Positions 14,019-52,567 of a stretch of DNA of 64,000 bases are shown here, in pieces (the stretch's first letter is position 1; each line of letters opens with the position of its first letter). The position numbers were made by a program, and so were the translations under genes. The DNA comes from Candidatus Daviesbacteria bacterium (GTDB taxonomy: Bacteria > Patescibacteriota > Microgenomatia > Daviesbacterales > UBA10151): NCBI GenBank assembly GCA_030699125.1, contig JAUYKM010000009.1, forward strand, positions 204,958 through 268,957. The letters are read 5' to 3'. The notes under the pieces are model-generated. The model was not told the origin of the DNA, did no database searches, and was given only the letters and a program-made list of their open reading frames with translations.

Positions 14019-15238
14019 TAAGTCTTAGAATATACATAATAGCATTGGCTGCTCATGGCCAAGGTATTTCAGGTTCTGATCGGATTTTTATTGAGTTTGC
14101 AAAAGTTTGGTCAAGAAGAAATTCTGTGACAATTTATGTTTGGGAGGAAGGGTTCAAGATGTGCCAAAGGCAACATCTTGAGATATCAAATATAAGCAAA
14201 GCTTCCCTTTTGCAAAAACAAAACGTCAAATATCAAATATCAAATATGGGAATATGGAGGAAGTTTGGTTTTGTTATAAATTATCTGGCACGGATTATAG
14301 AAGGAATAAGATTGGGTTTTTCCATTAGATTAGAAAATTCACCGTCAATTATTGTTTACTCTGCTTCTGAGTTTTGGATGGATTCTATACCTGCCTTAAT
14401 TCTCAAATTGAGATACTCAAAAATAAAATGGGTGGCGGCTTGGTTTCAGACAGCACCAAAACCTTGGGTGGGGTTTACGGAAGGTGAAAGAAGCAATACT
14501 TATAAGTTGAGTGCTTTTCTTTATTGGTTAGCTCAACTACCTATAAAACCTGTTATTTCTCATTTTGCCGACTTTATTCTAGTGAATAATGAACAGGAAA
14601 GAAAACAGTTCCCCATTCTTAATAAAAAAAACAGAGTAATTGTTGTTTTAGGAGCTGTAGATTTAACACAGATAAATCAATGGAAAAAGAAATTTAAAAA
14701 TTTACCTAAAATTTATGATGCGGTTTTTCAAGGAAGATTTCATCCACAGAAAGGAGTTGTGGAACTTATTGATATCTGGAAACTAGTAGTTAATAAAAAA
14801 AATGATGCTAAATTGGCTCTTATAGGTGAAGGTCCTTTAATGGAGGATGTGAAACAAAAGATAAACCAGTTGATGTTGCAAAAAAATATCAAACTCTTTG
14901 GTTATGTCTTTGATGGCCCCAAGAAATATAAAATATTTGCCCAATCTAAATTGGTAGTCCATCCTGCTTTTTATGATTCTGGAGGCATGGCAGCAGCAGA
15001 AGCTATGGCATTTGGTATTCCCGCTATTGGATTTAATTTACCTGCATATAAATCATATTATCCAAAAGGGATGTATAAAGTTCCAGTCAATAATTTAATG
15101 GTATTTGCTGATACAATTTTAAATCTCTTAGACAATAAAAAATTATACTTAGAATTGGGAGATGAGTCTAAGCAGATGATTTCTAAAAATTGGTCATGGG
15201 ATAAAAGAGCAAATGAGGTATTAGCTAGATTGTCATAG
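14015..15238 (+). CDS. GT4 (GT-B fold) glycosyltransferase
   Basis: 407 aa. The C-terminal GGMAAAEAMAFGIPAIGFN is an EX7E-type motif. Confidence 0.75.
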   Translation: MISLRIYIIALAAHGQGISGSDRIFIEFAKVWSRRNSVTIYVWEEGFKMCQRQHLEISNISKASLLQKQNVKYQISNMGIWRKFGFVINYLARIIEGIRLGFSIRLENSPSIIVYSASEFWMDSIPALILKLRYSKIKWVAAWFQTAPKPWVGFTEGERSNTYKLSAFLYWLAQLPIKPVISHFADFILVNNEQERKQFPILNKKNRVIVVLGAVDLTQINQWKKKFKNLPKIYDAVFQGRFHPQKGVVELIDIWKLVVNKKNDAKLALIGEGPLMEDVKQKINQLMLQKNIKLFGYVFDGPKKYKIFAQSKLVVHPAFYDSGGMAAAEAMAFGIPAIGFNLPAYKSYYPKGMYKVPVNNLMVFADTILNLLDNKKLYLELGDESKQMISKNWSWDKRANEVLARLS

Positions 15239-29405: not shown

Positions 29406-32061
29406 TTTTTTTTTGATTCTCATAGTTTCTTTTTTAATTTTTTCATTTTGGATGTTTTGGCTACCTGGCTTAAGAGTGGCTACAGATTACCATCAAGCAG
29501 ATCAAAAAGTTATATTGAATATTTCGTTTCCTTGGGTTTGGAGAGAAGTTGGTGTGGCCGATGGTTTGGGAGAATATACAGGTAGCTCTTTATGGTTTCA
29601 ACCATTCCTTTCCCTTTCAGGCCTTTTAACATTAATTTCTATTCCATTTTGGTTACAAACTAAATTATGGGTTTTCTTGATACTGATATTGGGGTTCGTC
29701 TCCCTGAATAAACTTTTAAAATATCTAAGGATTAATTTTTTTGCAAGATATGTTGGGATATTTTTTTATCTTTCTAATTCTTTTTTTCTACTGCTTATTG
29801 ATGGAGGACAATTATCTTTAGCCTTAACTTATGGAGTTTTTCCACTAAACATTTATTTTTTTCTAAAAAACATTGATCAATCAAATTTTAAGAATAAATT
29901 ATATTTATCTGTTTCAATCTTGGTAGTTTCAATTTTAGATATCAGATTTGTTTATCTTTTAATTATTATTTTCTTAATACAATTTTTGATACTTCTATTT
30001 ACAGGCAATTGTCTTAAACTTTTAAAAGAATCTTTTTTTTATGCTTTATTAACATTAATTATTCTTTTGGGTTTTCATTCTTATTGGCTATTGCCAACTG
30101 CATTAAAACCTCCTCAATTACCACAAACATACGGAAGAGCTTCTCAAGTTGATTTTTTAAGTTTTTCTACTCTGGGTCATTCATTATTTCTTGAACAGCC
30201 GCACTGGTATAAAAATGTCTTTGGTCAAATTGAAAATATCAGAGGTGAGTTTGTATTGATACCCATGTTAGTTTTTTTGGCTCCAATCCTAAGGAGAAGG
30301 GACAAAGCAGTTGGTTTTTGGCTGATTGTTGCTATATTGGGAATTTTTTTAAGTAAAGGTTCACAGGAACCATTGGGAAAAGTCTATTCCTGGTTATTTA
30401 GCAATATTCCCGGCTTTTCATTTTTTAGGGATCCGGTTAAATTCTATTTTTTAACTAGCTTGTCGTACAGTATATTACTGGGTATTACGGTTCAAGAGAT
30501 AAATAACTTGAAATTAAAAAAAAATCTTATAGATAGATCTTTAAAATTCCTTCCTTTCTTAATACTCATATATCTTGTCTGGTTGATAAGGCCAGTGTAT
30601 CTCGGTCAGATGACAGGACTTTTTTCCTATCCGATATATGAGAAAGAATTTAGCAATTTAACGGAAAACATAAATGAGGATCAAAACTTCTCCAGAACTT
30701 TTTGGATTCCTACAAAATCACCTCTAGGTATAAGTTCTTTGCTGCATCCATCCGTTGAAGCATCAAGGTTGGTACAAAAAAGACCATTTGCTATTGGTAC
30801 AATTGGCAGTTATGAGACTTTAAACTTTTTGAGGGAAGCTACCTTTATGGGAGAAATTTTTGATGTATCAGGGATAGGCTATATAGTTTATCCTTATCTT
30901 GATCCCAAAAGAGATGATATGCATCCGGACAGTATAAGATATTTTTACACATTTTCTAACCAATTATCAGATTTATCATGGTTAACTAAAGTTGATAAGT
31001 CTCCAATTCCTCTTTGGCAAGCAAAAAAACACCAAGATAGATTTTTTATAACTCCCAATATTTGGTGGGTAATTGGATCAGATGATATTTATAATGAGTC
31101 TACTAAAAGTGCCCAGCTTCAATTATCTAAAAATGCACTGGTTTTCGTTGAAGAAAAAGCCGGCCTGGGCCAGAGAATAGATGAAAATCCGTCAGCAAAA
31201 ATAGTTTTAAACAAGAAGACTCTTGTAGATCTGGCAGCCAGTTTCATAGATGATTCAGAGTTTATTTTTCCAGCAAAGAATTTAGACTTTGACCCAAATG
31301 AGTCAGGATGGTGGAAGAGGGAGGTAGCGGACCTGATTAGGTGGAGGGATTTTTTACAAACAAAGTATGGAATTGATAATTTAGATTTTGATTTAGGTGG
31401 AGGTTGGGCGGTAGGAGAAGGAAGTTTAAAGTTTAAAGTTAAAAGTGAAAAATTTAGTGAAAATAGGATGCTTTTAGCTAGGGTATTGGAGAGTACCAGA
31501 AGTGGGCAGTTAAGATTTTATCAAAATGGTCAATTAATTGGTGAAATAAATACAAAAAAAGAGGGGAATAATATCCGATGGTTTGAGGTGGGGGAGTTGT
31601 CCAGGGATCGTGGTGAATTAAATATTGAGTCATCAGGGGATATTAATGTAGTTAACGCGCTGGCCATTATTGAGAAAAACTTATGGCAAGACGATCAAGA
31701 TAAGGCTAAGCAGTTACAAAAACAAAATCGCATCATGAACTACGATAAGAATAATGTTCAGGATACTAAGACAGAAGTTACCTATCAAAAAATTAACCCT
31801 ACCAAATATAAAGTTACTGTGAGTGGATTAAAAGGCGAAGCTTTTTTAGTATTTTCTCAAAATTATGATGGACTGTGGAAACTGAATGATCAGTTCTCCC
31901 TTCCTATTTATAGCCTACTAAACGGATTTAAGGTAGAAAAGGATGGAGAATATATTGTAAAATTTGAGCCGCAAAAGTGGGTTTATCCGGGATTGATAGT
32001 TTCTTTTATCACGTCGGTATTTTTAATAGTTACATGGGTATTACTACGAAAAAAAGGCTAA
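29392..32061 (+). CDS. Giant polytopic membrane protein, YfhO-like GT-C architecture (paralog 4)
   Basis: 889 aa. An N-terminal multi-TM domain is followed by a C-terminal soluble domain ending DGLWKL...NGFKVEKDGEYIVKFEPQKW and a final TM. Confidence 0.5.
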   Translation: MQKNNFFLILIVSFLIFSFWMFWLPGLRVATDYHQADQKVILNISFPWVWREVGVADGLGEYTGSSLWFQPFLSLSGLLTLISIPFWLQTKLWVFLILILGFVSLNKLLKYLRINFFARYVGIFFYLSNSFFLLLIDGGQLSLALTYGVFPLNIYFFLKNIDQSNFKNKLYLSVSILVVSILDIRFVYLLIIIFLIQFLILLFTGNCLKLLKESFFYALLTLIILLGFHSYWLLPTALKPPQLPQTYGRASQVDFLSFSTLGHSLFLEQPHWYKNVFGQIENIRGEFVLIPMLVFLAPILRRRDKAVGFWLIVAILGIFLSKGSQEPLGKVYSWLFSNIPGFSFFRDPVKFYFLTSLSYSILLGITVQEINNLKLKKNLIDRSLKFLPFLILIYLVWLIRPVYLGQMTGLFSYPIYEKEFSNLTENINEDQNFSRTFWIPTKSPLGISSLLHPSVEASRLVQKRPFAIGTIGSYETLNFLREATFMGEIFDVSGIGYIVYPYLDPKRDDMHPDSIRYFYTFSNQLSDLSWLTKVDKSPIPLWQAKKHQDRFFITPNIWWVIGSDDIYNESTKSAQLQLSKNALVFVEEKAGLGQRIDENPSAKIVLNKKTLVDLAASFIDDSEFIFPAKNLDFDPNESGWWKREVADLIRWRDFLQTKYGIDNLDFDLGGGWAVGEGSLKFKVKSEKFSENRMLLARVLESTRSGQLRFYQNGQLIGEINTKKEGNNIRWFEVGELSRDRGELNIESSGDINVVNALAIIEKNLWQDDQDKAKQLQKQNRIMNYDKNNVQDTKTEVTYQKINPTKYKVTVSGLKGEAFLVFSQNYDGLWKLNDQFSLPIYSLLNGFKVEKDGEYIVKFEPQKWVYPGLIVSFITSVFLIVTWVLLRKKG

Positions 32062-35470: not shown

Positions 35471-36198
35471 TCCTCACCATCATCATCCCAGTCTTTAATG
35501 AGGAAAAAACAATCGAAAGACTTTTAAAAAAGGTTGTGGAGGTTAATTTGCCTAAGGGTATCAAAAAAGAAATTATTGTTATTGATGATGGATCAACCGA
35601 TAAAACTCAAAAAGTTTTATCGGAAATTCGAAATTCCCGCTTCGCGAGGCGAGCGAAATTCGAAATTCGAGTTTTAGGACATGATAAGAATAAAGGAAAG
35701 GGTACAGCAATAAGAACTGGATTAAAGTATGCCGAAGGAGATTACATAATCATTCAGGATGCGGATCTAGAGTATGATCCAAATGATTACAATACTCTTC
35801 TAGAACTAGTCATCTCTAAGAAAGCTCAAGTGGTTTATGGAACAAGACTGATAAATTATCCTTTTAAGATTTTGGGCAAAAACAAAACTGTGATGCCTAT
35901 TCATCTATTGGCCAATAAATTCTTAACAACTTTCACAAATTTATTATATGGAAGTAAACTAACTGATATGGAAACTTGTTATAAACTTATTAAAAGCGAC
36001 ATTTTTAAAAAAATTACATTAAAAGCTAATCGGTTTGATTTTGAACCGGAAGTGACAGCAAAAATATTAAAACTAAAGATTCCAATAGTTGAGGTCTCGA
36101 TTAGTGTTAAGCCAAGGACATACAAAGAAGGTAAAAAAATTGGATGGCTGGATGGATTAGTAGCGATCTGGATTCTATTAAAGCATAAATTTAGTTAA
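35467..36198 (+). CDS. GT2 polyprenyl-phosphate sugar synthase (DPM1/Ppm1/GtrB-like) carrying an in-frame GC-rich mini-insertion
   Basis: 243 aa with IIIPVFNEEKTI, IVIDDGSTDKT, NKGKGTA and IIIQDADLEYDP, the hallmarks of the dolichyl/undecaprenyl-phosphate glycosyltransferase family. Confidence 0.75.
   Translation: MILTIIIPVFNEEKTIERLLKKVVEVNLPKGIKKEIIVIDDGSTDKTQKVLSEIRNSRFARRAKFEIRVLGHDKNKGKGTAIRTGLKYAEGDYIIIQDADLEYDPNDYNTLLELVISKKAQVVYGTRLINYPFKILGKNKTVMPIHLLANKFLTTFTNLLYGSKLTDMETCYKLIKSDIFKKITLKANRFDFEPEVTAKILKLKIPIVEVSISVKPRTYKEGKKIGWLDGLVAIWILLKHKFS
35623..35668. repeat. GC-rich 18-nt core flanked on each side by two GAAATTC heptamers; in-frame insertion within the GT2 gene
   Basis: The sequence reads GAAATTC GAAATTC CCGCTTCGCGAGGCGAGC GAAATTC GAAATTC and encodes ...EIRNSRFARRAKFEIR... 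Removing 33 nt (core plus one heptamer pair) restores a family-typical ...EIRNSVLGHDKNKGKG. Confidence 0.5.
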
Positions 36199-45534: not shown

Positions 45535-45539
45535 CCAAT

Positions 45540-45606
45540 TGTCATCCTGAGGGCGAAGCCCGAAGGATCTCTCAACCCATTCGGGTCTGAGTCCCTCAGG
45601 GTCGAA
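45540..45606. repeat. GC-rich structured intergenic element (TGTCAT + imperfect long hairpin)
   Basis: TGTCAT-CCTGAGGGCGAAGCCCGAAGG-ATC ... CCCATTCGGGTCTGAGTCCCTCAGGG. Pairing is CCTGAGGG/CCCTCAGG and CCCGAA/TTCGGG. It lies directly after the stop at 45534 and is unlike the AT-rich flanks. Confidence 0.5.
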
Positions 45607-45613
45607 GACTTGT

Positions 45614-46225
45614 TTGAGACTTGCATTCGCAAGAGATTCTTCGCTAATCGCTCAGAATGACAAAAAAGATATGAAATATTCTTTTATCATTTTTTCTCTA
45701 CTACTTCTAATTTATATGCTCTGGCCCGGGCCCACGAAAATTTCCGATTCCCCCCCTCTTCCAAATTCTGATAAATCCACTCTGGAAGGTGATACTATCC
45801 AAATACCAAACGTCTCAGCATATTTTTCCAACAATTTTAGGGATTTTGCTACCAGCTTTTATCGAAATCATTACCAGAACTCATCTCATTTTCCTTTCCC
45901 ACCACTCACGCTGAATCATCCTCCGGAATATTCCTGGATTGCCATAAAAAGGCACACGGATACCACCTATTTGGAAGAATTTGCTTACCCTCTTAGGGAT
46001 TCCTTGTATGTGAACGGTTTGGAGCCATTTTATGAAGACGGTTCACCTAAATTTTGGGGTGCCACTATGTTTGAGATTGGTCCTGCAAATTTCTTTACTA
46101 AGGTAACATTAAGATTTTATCCGTCAAATATTCTAGTCAGAATTATCGTTTGGTTAGGTGTAGTGGTGTCTATCTGGTTACTTTTTAAATTAGGCAAGCA
46201 AATTGTTTTGCAAAAATATGAGTAG
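45614..46225 (+). CDS. Hypothetical membrane-anchored protein
   Basis: 203-aa ORF. The probable start is at 45671 (MKYSFIIFSLLLLIYMLWPGP), which gives one N-terminal TM and a C-terminal TM. There is no recognisable family. Confidence 0.4.
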   Translation: MRLAFARDSSLIAQNDKKDMKYSFIIFSLLLLIYMLWPGPTKISDSPPLPNSDKSTLEGDTIQIPNVSAYFSNNFRDFATSFYRNHYQNSSHFPFPPLTLNHPPEYSWIAIKRHTDTTYLEEFAYPLRDSLYVNGLEPFYEDGSPKFWGATMFEIGPANFFTKVTLRFYPSNILVRIIVWLGVVVSIWLLFKLGKQIVLQKYE

Positions 46226-47654
46226 ACTCTTATCCATTTATAGTAAATCATTATTTATTCTAGCTGCATTTTTATTTGCTTTTATTCCTCTTTATCCCAA
46301 GTTCCCTTTTTTAAATATTGCAGGAACTTTTGTAGCAGTAAGATTGGAAGATATTCTGATTGCTTTTTTGGCCGTATCTTGGGCAATTTATATTGTTATC
46401 TCTAATAAATTGAGAGATCTCCTCAAAGATAGACTAGCTCAAGTTTTGTTGCTTTTTTTCTTTATTGGGGCTGTCTCTTTAATTTCAGGCATATTTTTAA
46501 CTCATAGCGTCTCAGGGAGTATTGGTTTACTACATCTTTTAAGAAGGGTTGAATATATGATTCTTTTGCCAATTGTGGCCACCCTTATTCAAACTAAGAA
46601 ACAATTTATAATGATTCTAATAACATTGGGGGCTGTTTTGCTAGCAGTGAACTTATATGCTTTAGGCCAGCAATTCTTAGATTGGCCGGTTATCTCTACC
46701 ACCAATTCTGAATTCTCCAAGGGATTGATTTTAAGACTGACTCCTGGAGCGAGGGTCAACTCCACTTTTGCAGGACATTATGATTTGGCGGCATTTTTGG
46801 CAATGGCATTATGTCTACTTAGTGCACTTTTCTTTGCTGTTAATAAAAGGATAAAAATAGTGGTAATTTTATTGTTTGGGAGCTCCCTTTTAGTACTGGT
46901 TATGAGTGCTGCCAGAGTTTCATTTATGGCGGCATTCTTTGGAATAATTGCTGCTCTAATCTTTTCTAAGAAAAAGAAGTATTTAATTTTCATATTCATT
47001 GCATCTTTATTGATCTTACTTTATCCCTCTCAATTAAGGGATAGATTTATTTCAACTATCACTATAAATATTTTAAATTTGGGCCAAAGATATGAAGGAC
47101 AAACGCAAGACCAGCACATCAGAAGCAAACTTAATATACCCACATTGGCAATTAAAACTTCCTCCCGGTCAGCAGAATCTTCAACTTTTGCTTCGCCCTC
47201 GGGTTCCACAGCCACAGATATTACTCCGGGTGAACCGCTAGATACCACACAGCTCGGGGTTTATAGATCTTTTCAAATTAGGCTAAATATTGAATGGCCC
47301 AGAGCCGTAAGAGCGTTTATTAAAAATCCGCTTTTGGGAACTGGCTACTCCTCAATTGATATAGCAACGGATAATGATATTTTAAGATCGTTAGGGGAGG
47401 TGGGATTGTTAGGAACTTTTGCCTTAGGACTAGTATTTATAGAGGTTGGTAAAAGGATCCACTGCTGTTTTAGAGATGAATCCAAATTAATTAAATATTT
47501 TTCTGCAGGCGTGTTAGCTATCATGATTGCCTTTTTGATAAATAGTTTATTCATAGATGTATTGGAAGCTTCAAAAGTAGCCACTCTTTTCTGGATGATA
47601 TTAGGTTTAAACTTGGCAGTATTGTCATTCCCGCGTATGCGGGAATCCAATTAA
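46203..47654 (+). CDS. Wzy_C-type O-antigen ligase/polymerase-like polytopic membrane protein
   Basis: 483 aa with ~12 TM helices. RAVRAFIKNPLLGTGYSS resembles the conserved O-antigen-ligase loop motif. It carries an S/T-rich, GC-rich insert at ~47150-47260. The last 7 codons are contributed by a GC hairpin. Confidence 0.55.
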   Translation: MFCKNMSRLLSIYSKSLFILAAFLFAFIPLYPKFPFLNIAGTFVAVRLEDILIAFLAVSWAIYIVISNKLRDLLKDRLAQVLLLFFFIGAVSLISGIFLTHSVSGSIGLLHLLRRVEYMILLPIVATLIQTKKQFIMILITLGAVLLAVNLYALGQQFLDWPVISTTNSEFSKGLILRLTPGARVNSTFAGHYDLAAFLAMALCLLSALFFAVNKRIKIVVILLFGSSLLVLVMSAARVSFMAAFFGIIAALIFSKKKKYLIFIFIASLLILLYPSQLRDRFISTITINILNLGQRYEGQTQDQHIRSKLNIPTLAIKTSSRSAESSTFASPSGSTATDITPGEPLDTTQLGVYRSFQIRLNIEWPRAVRAFIKNPLLGTGYSSIDIATDNDILRSLGEVGLLGTFALGLVFIEVGKRIHCCFRDESKLIKYFSAGVLAIMIAFLINSLFIDVLEASKVATLFWMILGLNLAVLSFPRMRESN

Positions 47655-47695
47655 TAATATTTGTTAAATGGATCCCTGCCTTCGCAGGGATGACA
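47623..47695. repeat. Inverted pair of GC-rich hairpin units (TGTCAT-TCCCGC-GTAT-GCGGGA-ATCCA ... TGGAT-CCCTGC-CTTC-GCAGGG-ATGACA)
   Basis: Two units lie in opposite orientation, separated by a 19-nt AT spacer. The outer TGTCAT/ATGACA and ATCCA/TGGAT arms are complementary, and each unit carries its own 6-bp GC stem. The pair overlaps the stop of the 46203 gene and the annotated 5' end of the 47668 gene. Confidence 0.55.
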
Positions 47696-51497: not shown

Positions 51498-52567
51498 CCA
51501 TAGTTCATGATGACCTGGTGCAATGGGGCGGGGCTGAGAGAGTTTTGGAAGGAATTTGTGAGATTTATCCCGACGCACCAATATTTAGCTCTGTTTTTGA
51601 CAAAGATAATAAAGATTTAAAAAAAAGATTTGGCAACAAAAAAGTTTACACCTCTTTCCTGCAAAGAATTCCCGGATGGAAAAGTTTATATAAAGCGATG
51701 CTGCCGCTTTATCCGATTGCCTTTGAGCAATTTGATTTCTCTGAATATGATTTGGTGATATCTCATACCACCCGCTTTGCCAAATCAATTATTACTAAAC
51801 CTAAAACAGTTCATATTTGTTATTGTCATACACCCCCCAGATTTTTATGGAATTTTTCCGGGCAGTCTTATCCAATGCTGGAGTTTTTTTTCAAAAAGCT
51901 TAAGCCTTACGATAAAATTTCAGCTCAAAGAGTAGATTATTTTATTGCCGGATCAGAAAATGCCAAAAGGAGAATAAAGAAAGTTTATGGTAACGATTCA
52001 AAAGTGGTTTATCCTTTTGTGGATCTGAAAAGATTTGAAAATATAGAAACTTTTGATGGAGGATATTATCTGGTAATTTCCAGACTTAATAAATATAAAA
52101 GGATAGATTTGGCATTGGAAGCATGTATTAAGTTGGAATTACCACTTAAGATTATAGGGATAGGGCCGGAGTCGGAAGGGTTAAGGGTTAAGGGTAAAGG
52201 GGAAAGGGTGGAGTTTTTGAGAGAATTGGATGATGAGATGCTGGTACAAATTATGGCTGGATGCAGGGCATTAATTATTCCCGGCATTGAAGATTTTGGT
52301 ATGACATCTTTGGAGGTTCAAGCTCTAGGCAAACCCGTTATAGCATATAAAGAGGGCGGAGTTTTAGAGACAGTTCAGGAAGGGAAAACCGGTTTCTTTT
52401 TTGATTATCCTACAGTGGATAGTTTGATTAAAACTCTAGATTTTTTTAATGATTTACATCGTTGGAATAATGCAAAGATTTGCCAAGAGAATGCAAAGCG
52501 CTTTAGCAAGGACCTCTTTTTTACGAATTTTAAGCAAACAGTTGAGCATTTGTTGTACACTAATTAG
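51488..52567 (+). CDS. GT4 (GT-B fold) glycosyltransferase
   Basis: The track ORF starts at 51446. A start at 51488 (MRVAIVHDDLVQWGGAERV), overlapping the upstream stop, is more plausible. The C-terminal motif is DFGMTSLEVQALGKPVIAYKEGG. Confidence 0.7.
   Translation: MRVAIVHDDLVQWGGAERVLEGICEIYPDAPIFSSVFDKDNKDLKKRFGNKKVYTSFLQRIPGWKSLYKAMLPLYPIAFEQFDFSEYDLVISHTTRFAKSIITKPKTVHICYCHTPPRFLWNFSGQSYPMLEFFFKKLKPYDKISAQRVDYFIAGSENAKRRIKKVYGNDSKVVYPFVDLKRFENIETFDGGYYLVISRLNKYKRIDLALEACIKLELPLKIIGIGPESEGLRVKGKGERVEFLRELDDEMLVQIMAGCRALIIPGIEDFGMTSLEVQALGKPVIAYKEGGVLETVQEGKTGFFFDYPTVDSLIKTLDFFNDLHRWNNAKICQENAKRFSKDLFFTNFKQTVEHLLYTN

Follow-up and report, generated by a model that had tools for sequence, protein, structure and literature searches.

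The DNA considered here is a 64-kb stretch (64,000 nucleotides; hereafter the window) of contig JAUYKM010000009.1 from a Candidatus Daviesbacteria bacterium, a member of the candidate phyla radiation (CPR), with a G+C content of 34.3%. It carries a 243-aa family 2 glycosyltransferase (GT2) gene in which a short GC-rich core interrupts an array of AT-rich 7-nt repeats (heptamers). The host protein matches the Pfam family Glycos_transf_2 (PF00535; E 5e-34), and its nearest solved structures are GtrB (5EKP; E 1.6e-14) and dolichyl-phosphate mannose (DPM) synthase, DPMS (5MLZ; E 3.6e-14). The DDGS...D and DAD motifs, together with this similarity, agree with a GT-A fold, and the protein is predicted to be a GtrB/DPM1-like GT2 similar to the catalytic domain of GtrB and DPM synthase; it is shorter than GtrB and lacks the C-terminal membrane part of that enzyme. 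A GT2 of 100% identity is encoded on a 360-kb contig of a 'Candidatus Daviesbacteria' metagenome-assembled genome at NCBI, followed by homologs of 68% identity or less. Genes around the host encode a GT2, two methyltransferases, a family 4 glycosyltransferase (GT4) and a Wzy_C-like protein, and the locus is therefore regarded as an envelope-glycosylation cluster.

Between the DDGSTD and NKGKG motifs of the host gene (35623-35668), two copies of GAAATTC are followed by the 18-nt core and by two further copies of GAAATTC, a sequence and placement exactly as described in an earlier reading made without database searches (the sequence-only reading). The two 14-nt flanks are 100% identical, with a spacing of 32. 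The core has a G+C content of 78% (14/18), with G or C at the third position of five of its six codons. It is in frame, contains no stop codon and is predicted to be translated as RFARRA (peptide spanning the insert, EIRNSRFARRAKFEIR), and the preceding Ser codon changed from TCG to TCC upon insertion. At up to three mismatches the core is found once in the window (0 expected). The arrangement itself, an AT-rich direct repeat of at least 14 nt around a GC-rich spacer, has a single occurrence in the 64 kb and is restricted to the same site in orthologous loci, and no counterpart turned up in 196 kb of low-GC control loci.

Protein alignments show the core to be a genuine insertion, 18 nt long (6 aa, RFARRA), into a conserved GT2 gene. 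In 120 aligned homologs, the segment from DDGSTD to NxGKG ranges from 27 to 46 residues (mode 32), and in the host protein it has 40. Removing the 18 nt gives LSEIRNSKFEIRVLGH, a 34-residue form present in 15/120 homologs, whereas removal of the 33 nt that the sequence-only reading had taken as an 11-aa insertion (RFARRAKFEIR) gives a 29-residue form present in only one of the 120. The HMMER alignment to GtrB 5EKP opens a 6-residue gap exactly opposite RFARRA. An in-frame insertion is thus borne out by the ortholog alignment, while its size is corrected from 11 aa to 6. In the AlphaFold model (pLDDT, the predicted local distance difference test score, 89.8), residues 58-62 add a short turn that links alpha2 (47-55) to beta3 (67-71) and is modeled with lower pLDDT, and the insertion site is modeled as the surface connection alpha2-beta3; the degenerate last heptamer coincides with the start of strand beta3 (IRVLG). 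About 15 of the 120 homologs have an insert of this kind at the protein level. Most orthologs and the solved GtrB are without the extra residues.

To place the flanking heptamers we read the DNA of 14 orthologs (denoted by L numbers). A homolog profile search of genome contigs yielded, among the matches listed, only relatives of 43-52% identity, a protein search with a 72-aa fragment gave only three candidates, and a metagenome DNA pattern anchored on the hairpin described below recovered one true ortholog (L090) and one chance match. In the subtype with the common motif ...DKTxxVLS, a conserved TTA TCG is followed by codons that make up a tandem array whose unit is AAAT plus three variable bases, (AAATNNN)4-5, with a period of 7 and 4.4-4.7 copies by Tandem Repeats Finder (TRF). 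Arrays are homogeneous within one gene and different between genes (AAATGTC, AAATCCC, AATTTAA, GAAATTC), a hallmark of slippage and concerted evolution. Set against these, the (GAAATTC)2...(GAAATTC)2 + GAGTTTT of the window, a coding tandem repeat of four units and a degenerate fifth with a unit length not divisible by three, is the same array split midway.

The array is complete where there is no core: the orthologs L085, L086, L087 and L090 have the full four to five heptamers, unbroken. Heptamer phase runs on across every insertion (GAAATTC^GAAATTC in the window, A^AATGTC in L082, AGTT^CAA in L105), and the core lengths (18, 24, 24, 21, 30, 18, 21 and 18 nt) are all multiples of three. Because the core-free unit number is equal, the phase continuous and the lengths divisible by three, the flanks are existing array and not a target-site duplication; a 7- or 14-nt duplication accompanying the insertion would have broken the frame of a working gene. 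The heptamer target duplication proposed in the sequence-only reading is therefore replaced by insertion without duplication into a repeat that was already present. Forms of 27 and 34 residues, seen among distant orthologs, are exactly three heptamers apart. No heptamer copy-number or out-of-frame variants were found among 90% cluster members, and the one split gene in the 90% clusters is not split at the array. A neighbor-joining tree of the 120 homologs was too star-like for gains and losses to be counted. In L105 (873-1019), which belongs to the 'SSKFKVQNSKLF' type (type B), a heptamer array (AGTTCAA AGTTCAA AGTT...CAA AATTCAA AGTTATT) makes up the entire alpha2 helix region, and part of the GT-A fold thus appears to be encoded by a microsatellite, as read from DNA in L105 and as deduced from peptides in other type-B homologs.

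Directly 5' of the array lies a perfect AT-rich hairpin (Table 1) that encodes T-D-K-T-x-x-V-L-S. Type-A orthologs (L081-L088, L090 and L092) conserve it as DNA in the same codons, with one compensatory pair in L085 (GATAACAC / GTGTTATC) and one pair broken in each of L084 and L092. The Ser codon that closes it is TCG in all 11 type-A sequences read, and TCG makes up 5.8% of the Ser codons in the window. These patterns suggest that the upstream hairpin is under nucleotide-level selection.

An insert occupies the position of the core in eight more of the orthologs whose DNA was read (L081, L082, L083, L084, L088, L091, L092 and L105), and in all but L088 (44% G+C) it is GC-rich. Those of L081 and L082 form family A (pattern TCYYTCGACYTYGCTCRRGAC) and that of L083 represents family B (CCTGWCNNNNGWCAGG); the family pattern used for the window core was CCGCTTCGCRARGCGAG. 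AT-rich direct repeats (8-15 nt) flank each of the other cores too. Across the cores, 45/72 third codon positions (62.5%) are G or C, as against 27% elsewhere in the same genes (p = 5e-10), and GC-richness is therefore a property of the nucleotides and not of amino-acid composition. This agrees with the sequence-only reading, which had named orthologs with the same residues in AT-rich codons as the sign of an ancestral loop; the orthologs read here do not show that pattern.

Further comparisons suggest how such cores are conserved. Family A is also present in L104, within a remodelled segment: the DNA of L082 (1283-2023) and L104 (237-953) is about 90% identical except for a segment of about 200 nt, almost unalignable, that spans DDGS to IIQDAD and encodes KTFLVLS plus the heptamer array in one gene and SSILRLRSGRE in the other. 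Within this segment only the family-A core is kept (24/28, including a compensatory change from C-G to T-A), and the two genes read it in different frames, one giving SLDLARDK and the other ILRLRSGRE. The pattern looks like cassette-like mosaicism of the segment with alpha2, the loop, beta3 and the NxGKG motif. When the L105 core is reverse-complemented, the window core matches it at 15/17 positions, a score reached by 4 of 5000 shuffles against any other site. Both differences are in the loop (CTC vs TTT), and the same loop variants separate L082 from L081 within family A. The flanks of the window and L105 cores have no similarity, and the element is therefore about 17-18 nt long. Compensatory changes recur among cores (TCCC/GGGA, TCCT/AGGA, TCTC/GAGA), UUCG-like loops are present in L091 and L092, and one end of the family-A copies reads CGTC in L104 and TGTC in the others. 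Conserved, yet found in different frames and in both orientations, the cores are shown by these alignments to behave as nucleotide-level entities rather than as protein loops.

At least two core families are also shown to occur outside the gene. Two more copies of the L083 family-B core lie about 9 kb downstream on the same contig, at 21/22 (0 expected), adjoined by a family-A copy (20/24) in which two of the four differences are a compensatory pair. This distant locus is intergenic, because the gene called there has been extended too far 5' and a homolog in the window exists for residues 36-213 only. At L083 19422-19530, where the called 213-aa gene starts too early, the first 35 codons consist of the GC-rich hairpin elements A, B and B spaced by TTTTCAAT; B is a perfect 28-nt tandem repeat (x2.5), and a T run after each B hairpin gives a terminator-like look. 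The intergenic family B folds at z = -4.05. Beyond these loci, the exact family-A 22-mer TCCCTCGACTTTGCTCGGGACA, equal to the L081 GT2 core, was found in four IMG/VR contigs (L095, L096, L097 and L100; 51-54% G+C), and variants with other loops were found in viral contigs L094, L098, L099 and L101, from 34% to 64% G+C. This distribution hints that the family-A palindrome has spread far beyond Daviesbacteria.

Kinship of the core with the other GC-rich islets of the window, at which the sequence-only reading had hinted by noting a shared CCCGC/GCG flavour, turned out to be weak. The sole shared feature is the 8-mer ATTCCCGC at the left junction of the GT2 insert, which equals an arm of the hairpin at 47627; no longer alignment of the core to other GC islets in the window was found, and none of the 12 islets has the repeat-core-repeat architecture. 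Two GC-rich regions of the window are described for their own sake. At the boundary of the Wzy_C-like gene and the next gene lies an inverted doublet of GC-rich hairpins, the first arm of which (47623-47650), TGTCATTCCCGCGTATGCGGGAATCC, is close to the Neisseria NTS/dRS3 consensus CGTCATTCCCGCGMAVGCGGGAATCYRG. A sister hairpin (ATTCCCGCGGAGGCGGGAAT) occurs just downstream of the GT2 gene in L090 (3157-3176), and Rfam returned only weak sub-threshold matches for the 47.6-kb NTS-like pair (FtrB, WsnRNA46). The second is a GC-rich palindromic element, intergenic and upstream of a gene starting near 45671, that folds as DNA at z = -3.4. It has a TGTCATYC start in common with the 47.6-kb hairpins, and the equivalent region of L083 has the family A, B and B hairpins instead. 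The window also contains three more period-7 arrays of at least three copies (Table 1), compared with none in shuffles, and none of periods 8-12. Arrays of this type occur at ortholog loci as well, at L083 6572-6605 (TTCAAAG x4.9, perfect) and L090 7296-7332.

Table 1. Features of the GT2 locus, arrays and cores of its orthologs, and other repeats of the window. Positions are those of the window.
Feature	Position	Strand	Sequence or description	Basis
Host GT2 gene, 243 aa	35467-36198	+		Open reading frame list, Pfam, solved relatives
Perfect 11-bp AT-rich hairpin	35597-35623	+	CCGATAAAACT / AGTTTTATCGG, loop CAAAA	Inverted repeat search, fold
Heptamers 1-2	35623-35636	+	GAAATTC x2 = GAAATTCGAAATTC (AAATTCG in ortholog register)	Direct reading, orthologous arrays
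Inserted 18-nt GC-rich imperfect palindrome (core)	35637-35654	+	CCGCTTCGCGAGGCGAGC	Unique in window; 6-residue GtrB gap
Heptamers 3-4, in phase with heptamers 1-2	35655-35668	+	GAAATTC x2 = GAAATTCGAAATTC	Repeat search; TRF 35654-35670
Degenerate last heptamer	35669-35675	+	GAGTTTT (= AAATTTT in orthologs)	Codon alignments, secondary structure
L085 array, core-free			AAATGTC AAATGTC AAAAGTC AAATGTC AAATTTT	
L086 array, core-free			GAATTTA AAATTAA AAATTTA GAATTTA AAATTTT	
L087 array, core-free			GAATCCC AAATCCC AAATCCC AAATTCC AAATTTT	
L090 array, core-free			Similar to the L085-L087 arrays	
L081 and L082 core, family A			TCCCTCGACYTYGCTCGGGACAAG	
L083 core, family B			ACCTGTCTGCCGTCAGGCAAG	
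L084 core			CCCGGCCTTGCTCCGCGAAGCTGGGCGGGC	
L091 core			CTGCCTTCGGCAG...	
L092 core			CCTCCTTCGGAGG...	
L105 core			CTCGCTTTGCGAAGCGGA	
L088 core			Weaker insert, 44% G+C	
Array in GT4-like gene	14226-14247		TCAAATA x3.1	
Array in 889-aa membrane protein gene	31422-31446		AAGTTTA x3.6	
Array in another GT4-like gene	52176-52201		AAGGGTT x3.7 (AAGGGTA x4.9 by TRF)	
GC-rich palindromic element, 125 nt	45539-45663		Ends TTGTCATCCTGAG / CTCAGAATGACAA	
Inverted doublet of GC-rich hairpins	47623-47695		35-nt arms, 77% complementary	

Among known systems, the closest likeness is to the repetitive extragenic palindromes (REPs) and the Rickettsia palindromic elements (RPEs). REPs are mostly intergenic, with in-frame intragenic cases in Rickettsia RPE-4 and RPE-6 and in 'REP-decorated' repair proteins, and they include GTAG- and CGTC-tagged super-families (Di Nocera et al., 2013; PMC3733652). 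The CGTC-type REPs match Neisseria NTS/dRS3 hairpins, which are recognized by GIY-YIG single-strand nucleases (PMC11893778). Like REPs and RPEs, which now and then sit in frame in functional genes and are translated, notably in AT-rich Rickettsia, the elements described here are small GC-rich imperfect palindromes; they leave no target duplication, their stems are kept by compensatory and G-T changes, and the family-A ends (CGTC in L104, TGTC in other copies) resemble a known tag. In contrast, at 17-24 nt they are at or below the REP range of 20-40 nt, their host is a CPR bacterium, and several families in both orientations share one site of orthologous genes that is itself a heptamer microsatellite. 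The window core further differs in having no GTAG/CGTC tag and no second copy in 64 kb, although families A and B have extra intergenic copies in L083. Its predicted fold, a 6-7 bp stem with a bulge in 18 nt, has stems identical to those of the L105 core. Most cores fold no better than shuffles, and the case is therefore not rested on structure. The likeness to the NTS/Ssn system lies in the NTS-like hairpin at 47.6 kb and the shared 8-mer, beyond which the GT2 core cannot be aligned to NTS, and a crude screen of the window revealed no Ssn-type gene. The window core works like an intragenic REP and is of the same broad kind. We do not file it in a named REP family, because it has no tag, no second copy in the 64 kb and no significant hairpin, and a crude screen of the window showed no gene for a REP-associated tyrosine transposase (RAYT) or Ssn-type protein.

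We consider it rather probable that the core is a REP-like palindromic element inserted without duplication in a slippage-prone heptamer microsatellite, translated and tolerated. A copy of a very small GC-rich palindrome of the REP kind would have entered the center of an existing (AAATNNN)4-5 array, by a RAYT/IS200- or Ssn-type route via a hairpin or single strand, or by ectopic gene conversion between REP copies, and such routes would leave no duplication. The site may have been hit, or its occupant replaced, repeatedly: an AT-rich tract beside a perfect 11-bp hairpin would be prone to slippage or stalling that exposes single-stranded DNA. Once in place, the element would be translated as RFARRA and tolerated where the loop accepts residues. 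It would persist because it is in frame, free of stops and in a tolerant loop, such that only in-frame, stop-free copies remain. Three contributors are possible and are not separated here, namely targeting of the array through single strands or stalls, replacement of palindromes by ectopic conversion, and allelic recombination over about 200 nt.

Several observations weigh against this reading. Several families at one codon-level position are not what random transposition predicts, and an old insertion overwritten by gene conversion, or allelic recombination as in the L082/L104 mosaic, may explain part of the pattern. The search for further copies of the 18-nt core that the sequence-only reading had called for found none at up to four mismatches, either in the 64 kb or in a further 87 kb or so of Daviesbacteria DNA; of this genome it covered the 64-kb window, beyond which the contig has about 300 kb more. 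The lone viral match of the window core, in a contig of 67% GC, looks like chance, and the viral family-A matches are only a few-fold above a rough chance estimate of about 1.7. The window core hairpin is no more stable than shuffles (z = -0.73) and has neither a GTAG nor a CGTC tag. Finally, a motif screen of the window, only a crude one, revealed neither a RAYT nor an Ssn-type gene; a GIY-YIG motif screen of the window open reading frames, made without a Pfam scan of all of them, gave no convincing match.

Translation of the insert bears on a further comparison. Short GC-rich palindromic inserts are known from AT-rich organellar genomes as the GC clusters of yeast mitochondria and the 'byp' elements of Magnusiomyces, which are sometimes within coding sequence and bordered by AT-rich repeats. 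The byps are skipped by translational bypass and need not be in frame. The inserts here differ in that all are in frame and stop-free and fit ordinary translation, an observation subject to ascertainment bias given that the homologs were found via intact proteins; no homology is implied. Matching GAA ATT CGA codons flank the core, a trivial consequence of the array. Translational bypass and programmed -1 frameshifting were set aside, since none of the inserts is out of frame and the heptamers lie out of register for a slippery site. A tRNA-derived origin of the core was likewise dropped, as the 64-kb window contains no tRNA genes.

An alternative that we weigh but regard as unlikely is that the core is a selected cis-acting RNA or DNA hairpin in a polycistronic glycosylation mRNA, serving as a processing, stability or pausing signal, with the cores having evolved in place. 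Its shared position in many orthologs would be expected of such a signal, as would constant stems with variable loops (family A, window/L105 pair), compensatory changes, the UUCG-like loops, and a conserved perfect hairpin just upstream that is closed by an unusually fixed TCG codon. A selected signal is nonetheless hard to reconcile with the presence of any core in only a minority of orthologs, with at least five unrelated core sequences in both orientations, or with identical elements at an intergenic locus and in unrelated viral contigs. The window core also folds no better than shuffles and has no Rfam match at the gathering score.

The heptamer tract could instead be a contingency locus, that is, a phase-variation switch of a surface-glycan enzyme that the core interrupts and locks in the ON frame; we think this quite improbable. 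Simple sequence repeats of tetra- and heptanucleotides reportedly act in this way in surface genes of Haemophilus influenzae, and the GT2 array resembles them in being a glycosyltransferase tandem repeat whose unit is not a multiple of three and whose copies are homogenised within a gene and differ between genes, a signature of ongoing slippage. Forms that are three heptamers apart, and further period-7 arrays in envelope-glycosylation genes of the window, would fit as well. Four to five copies, or 2+2 when interrupted, are low for efficient switching, however, none of the variants that switching would leave were found in the 90% clusters, and the bacterium is an environmental member of the CPR rather than a host-adapted pathogen. 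A switch would also leave the origin of the cores unexplained.

We hold similar doubts about a more far-reaching version, according to which the heptamer microsatellite and the conserved hairpin would be a dedicated landing pad that, in envelope-glycosylation genes of Daviesbacteria, time and again captures, inverts and exchanges tiny single-strand hairpin elements, with slippage of heptamers then restoring the frame. If true, the alpha2-loop segment of a GT-A enzyme would be continually rebuilt by DNA-level repeat dynamics, and CPR bacteria would thereby have a means, not described before, to diversify or switch an enzyme of surface-glycan synthesis.

The two remaining explanations fare poorly. 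That a miniature transposable element created the heptamer repeats as a 7- or 14-nt target-site duplication is very improbable: perfect 14-nt repeats do abut the core, and the AT-rich borders of the other cores are similar, but the empty sites already have four to five heptamers, the L105 core splits one heptamer with nothing duplicated, the core lengths plus 7 or 14 nt (32, 38 nt, etc.) break the frame, and 17-24 nt is too short for conventional terminal inverted repeats. Miniature inverted-repeat transposable elements are likewise small, non-autonomous and palindromic, but they are 70-300 bp long, with terminal inverted repeats of 15-30 bp and target-site duplications, none of which is seen here. 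An ancestral protein loop, or one selected for Arg/Ala-rich residues with GC-richness as a by-product, is scarcely credible: several inserts share a weak peptide pattern, [FL]-[AG]-[RG]-x, but one DNA element encodes unrelated peptides in different frames, the window and L105 cores lie in opposite orientation, third positions are GC-rich, and the residues are missing from most orthologs and from solved GtrB.

The reading as a tolerated REP-like insertion places the locus beside a known phenomenon, in-frame REP/RPE inserts in a few bacteria such as Rickettsia; what is new here is a CPR variant of it in a heptamer microsatellite. Literature searches found no report of in-frame REP/RPE inserts in CPR/Patescibacteria. 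There is also a warning for annotation in that microsatellite direct repeats flanking an insert can mimic a target-site duplication. A single codon-level site of orthologous genes holds five or more distinct mini-palindromes, which lie in either orientation, are read in different frames and without exception interrupt a 7-nt microsatellite. The locus is thereby a natural trap in which to study how palindromic repeats of the smallest size move, or take one another's place. It should be useful for asking whether such palindromes target slippage-prone single-stranded DNA, and how loops, and possibly a whole helix, arise in a protein family by repeat dynamics rather than by point mutation.

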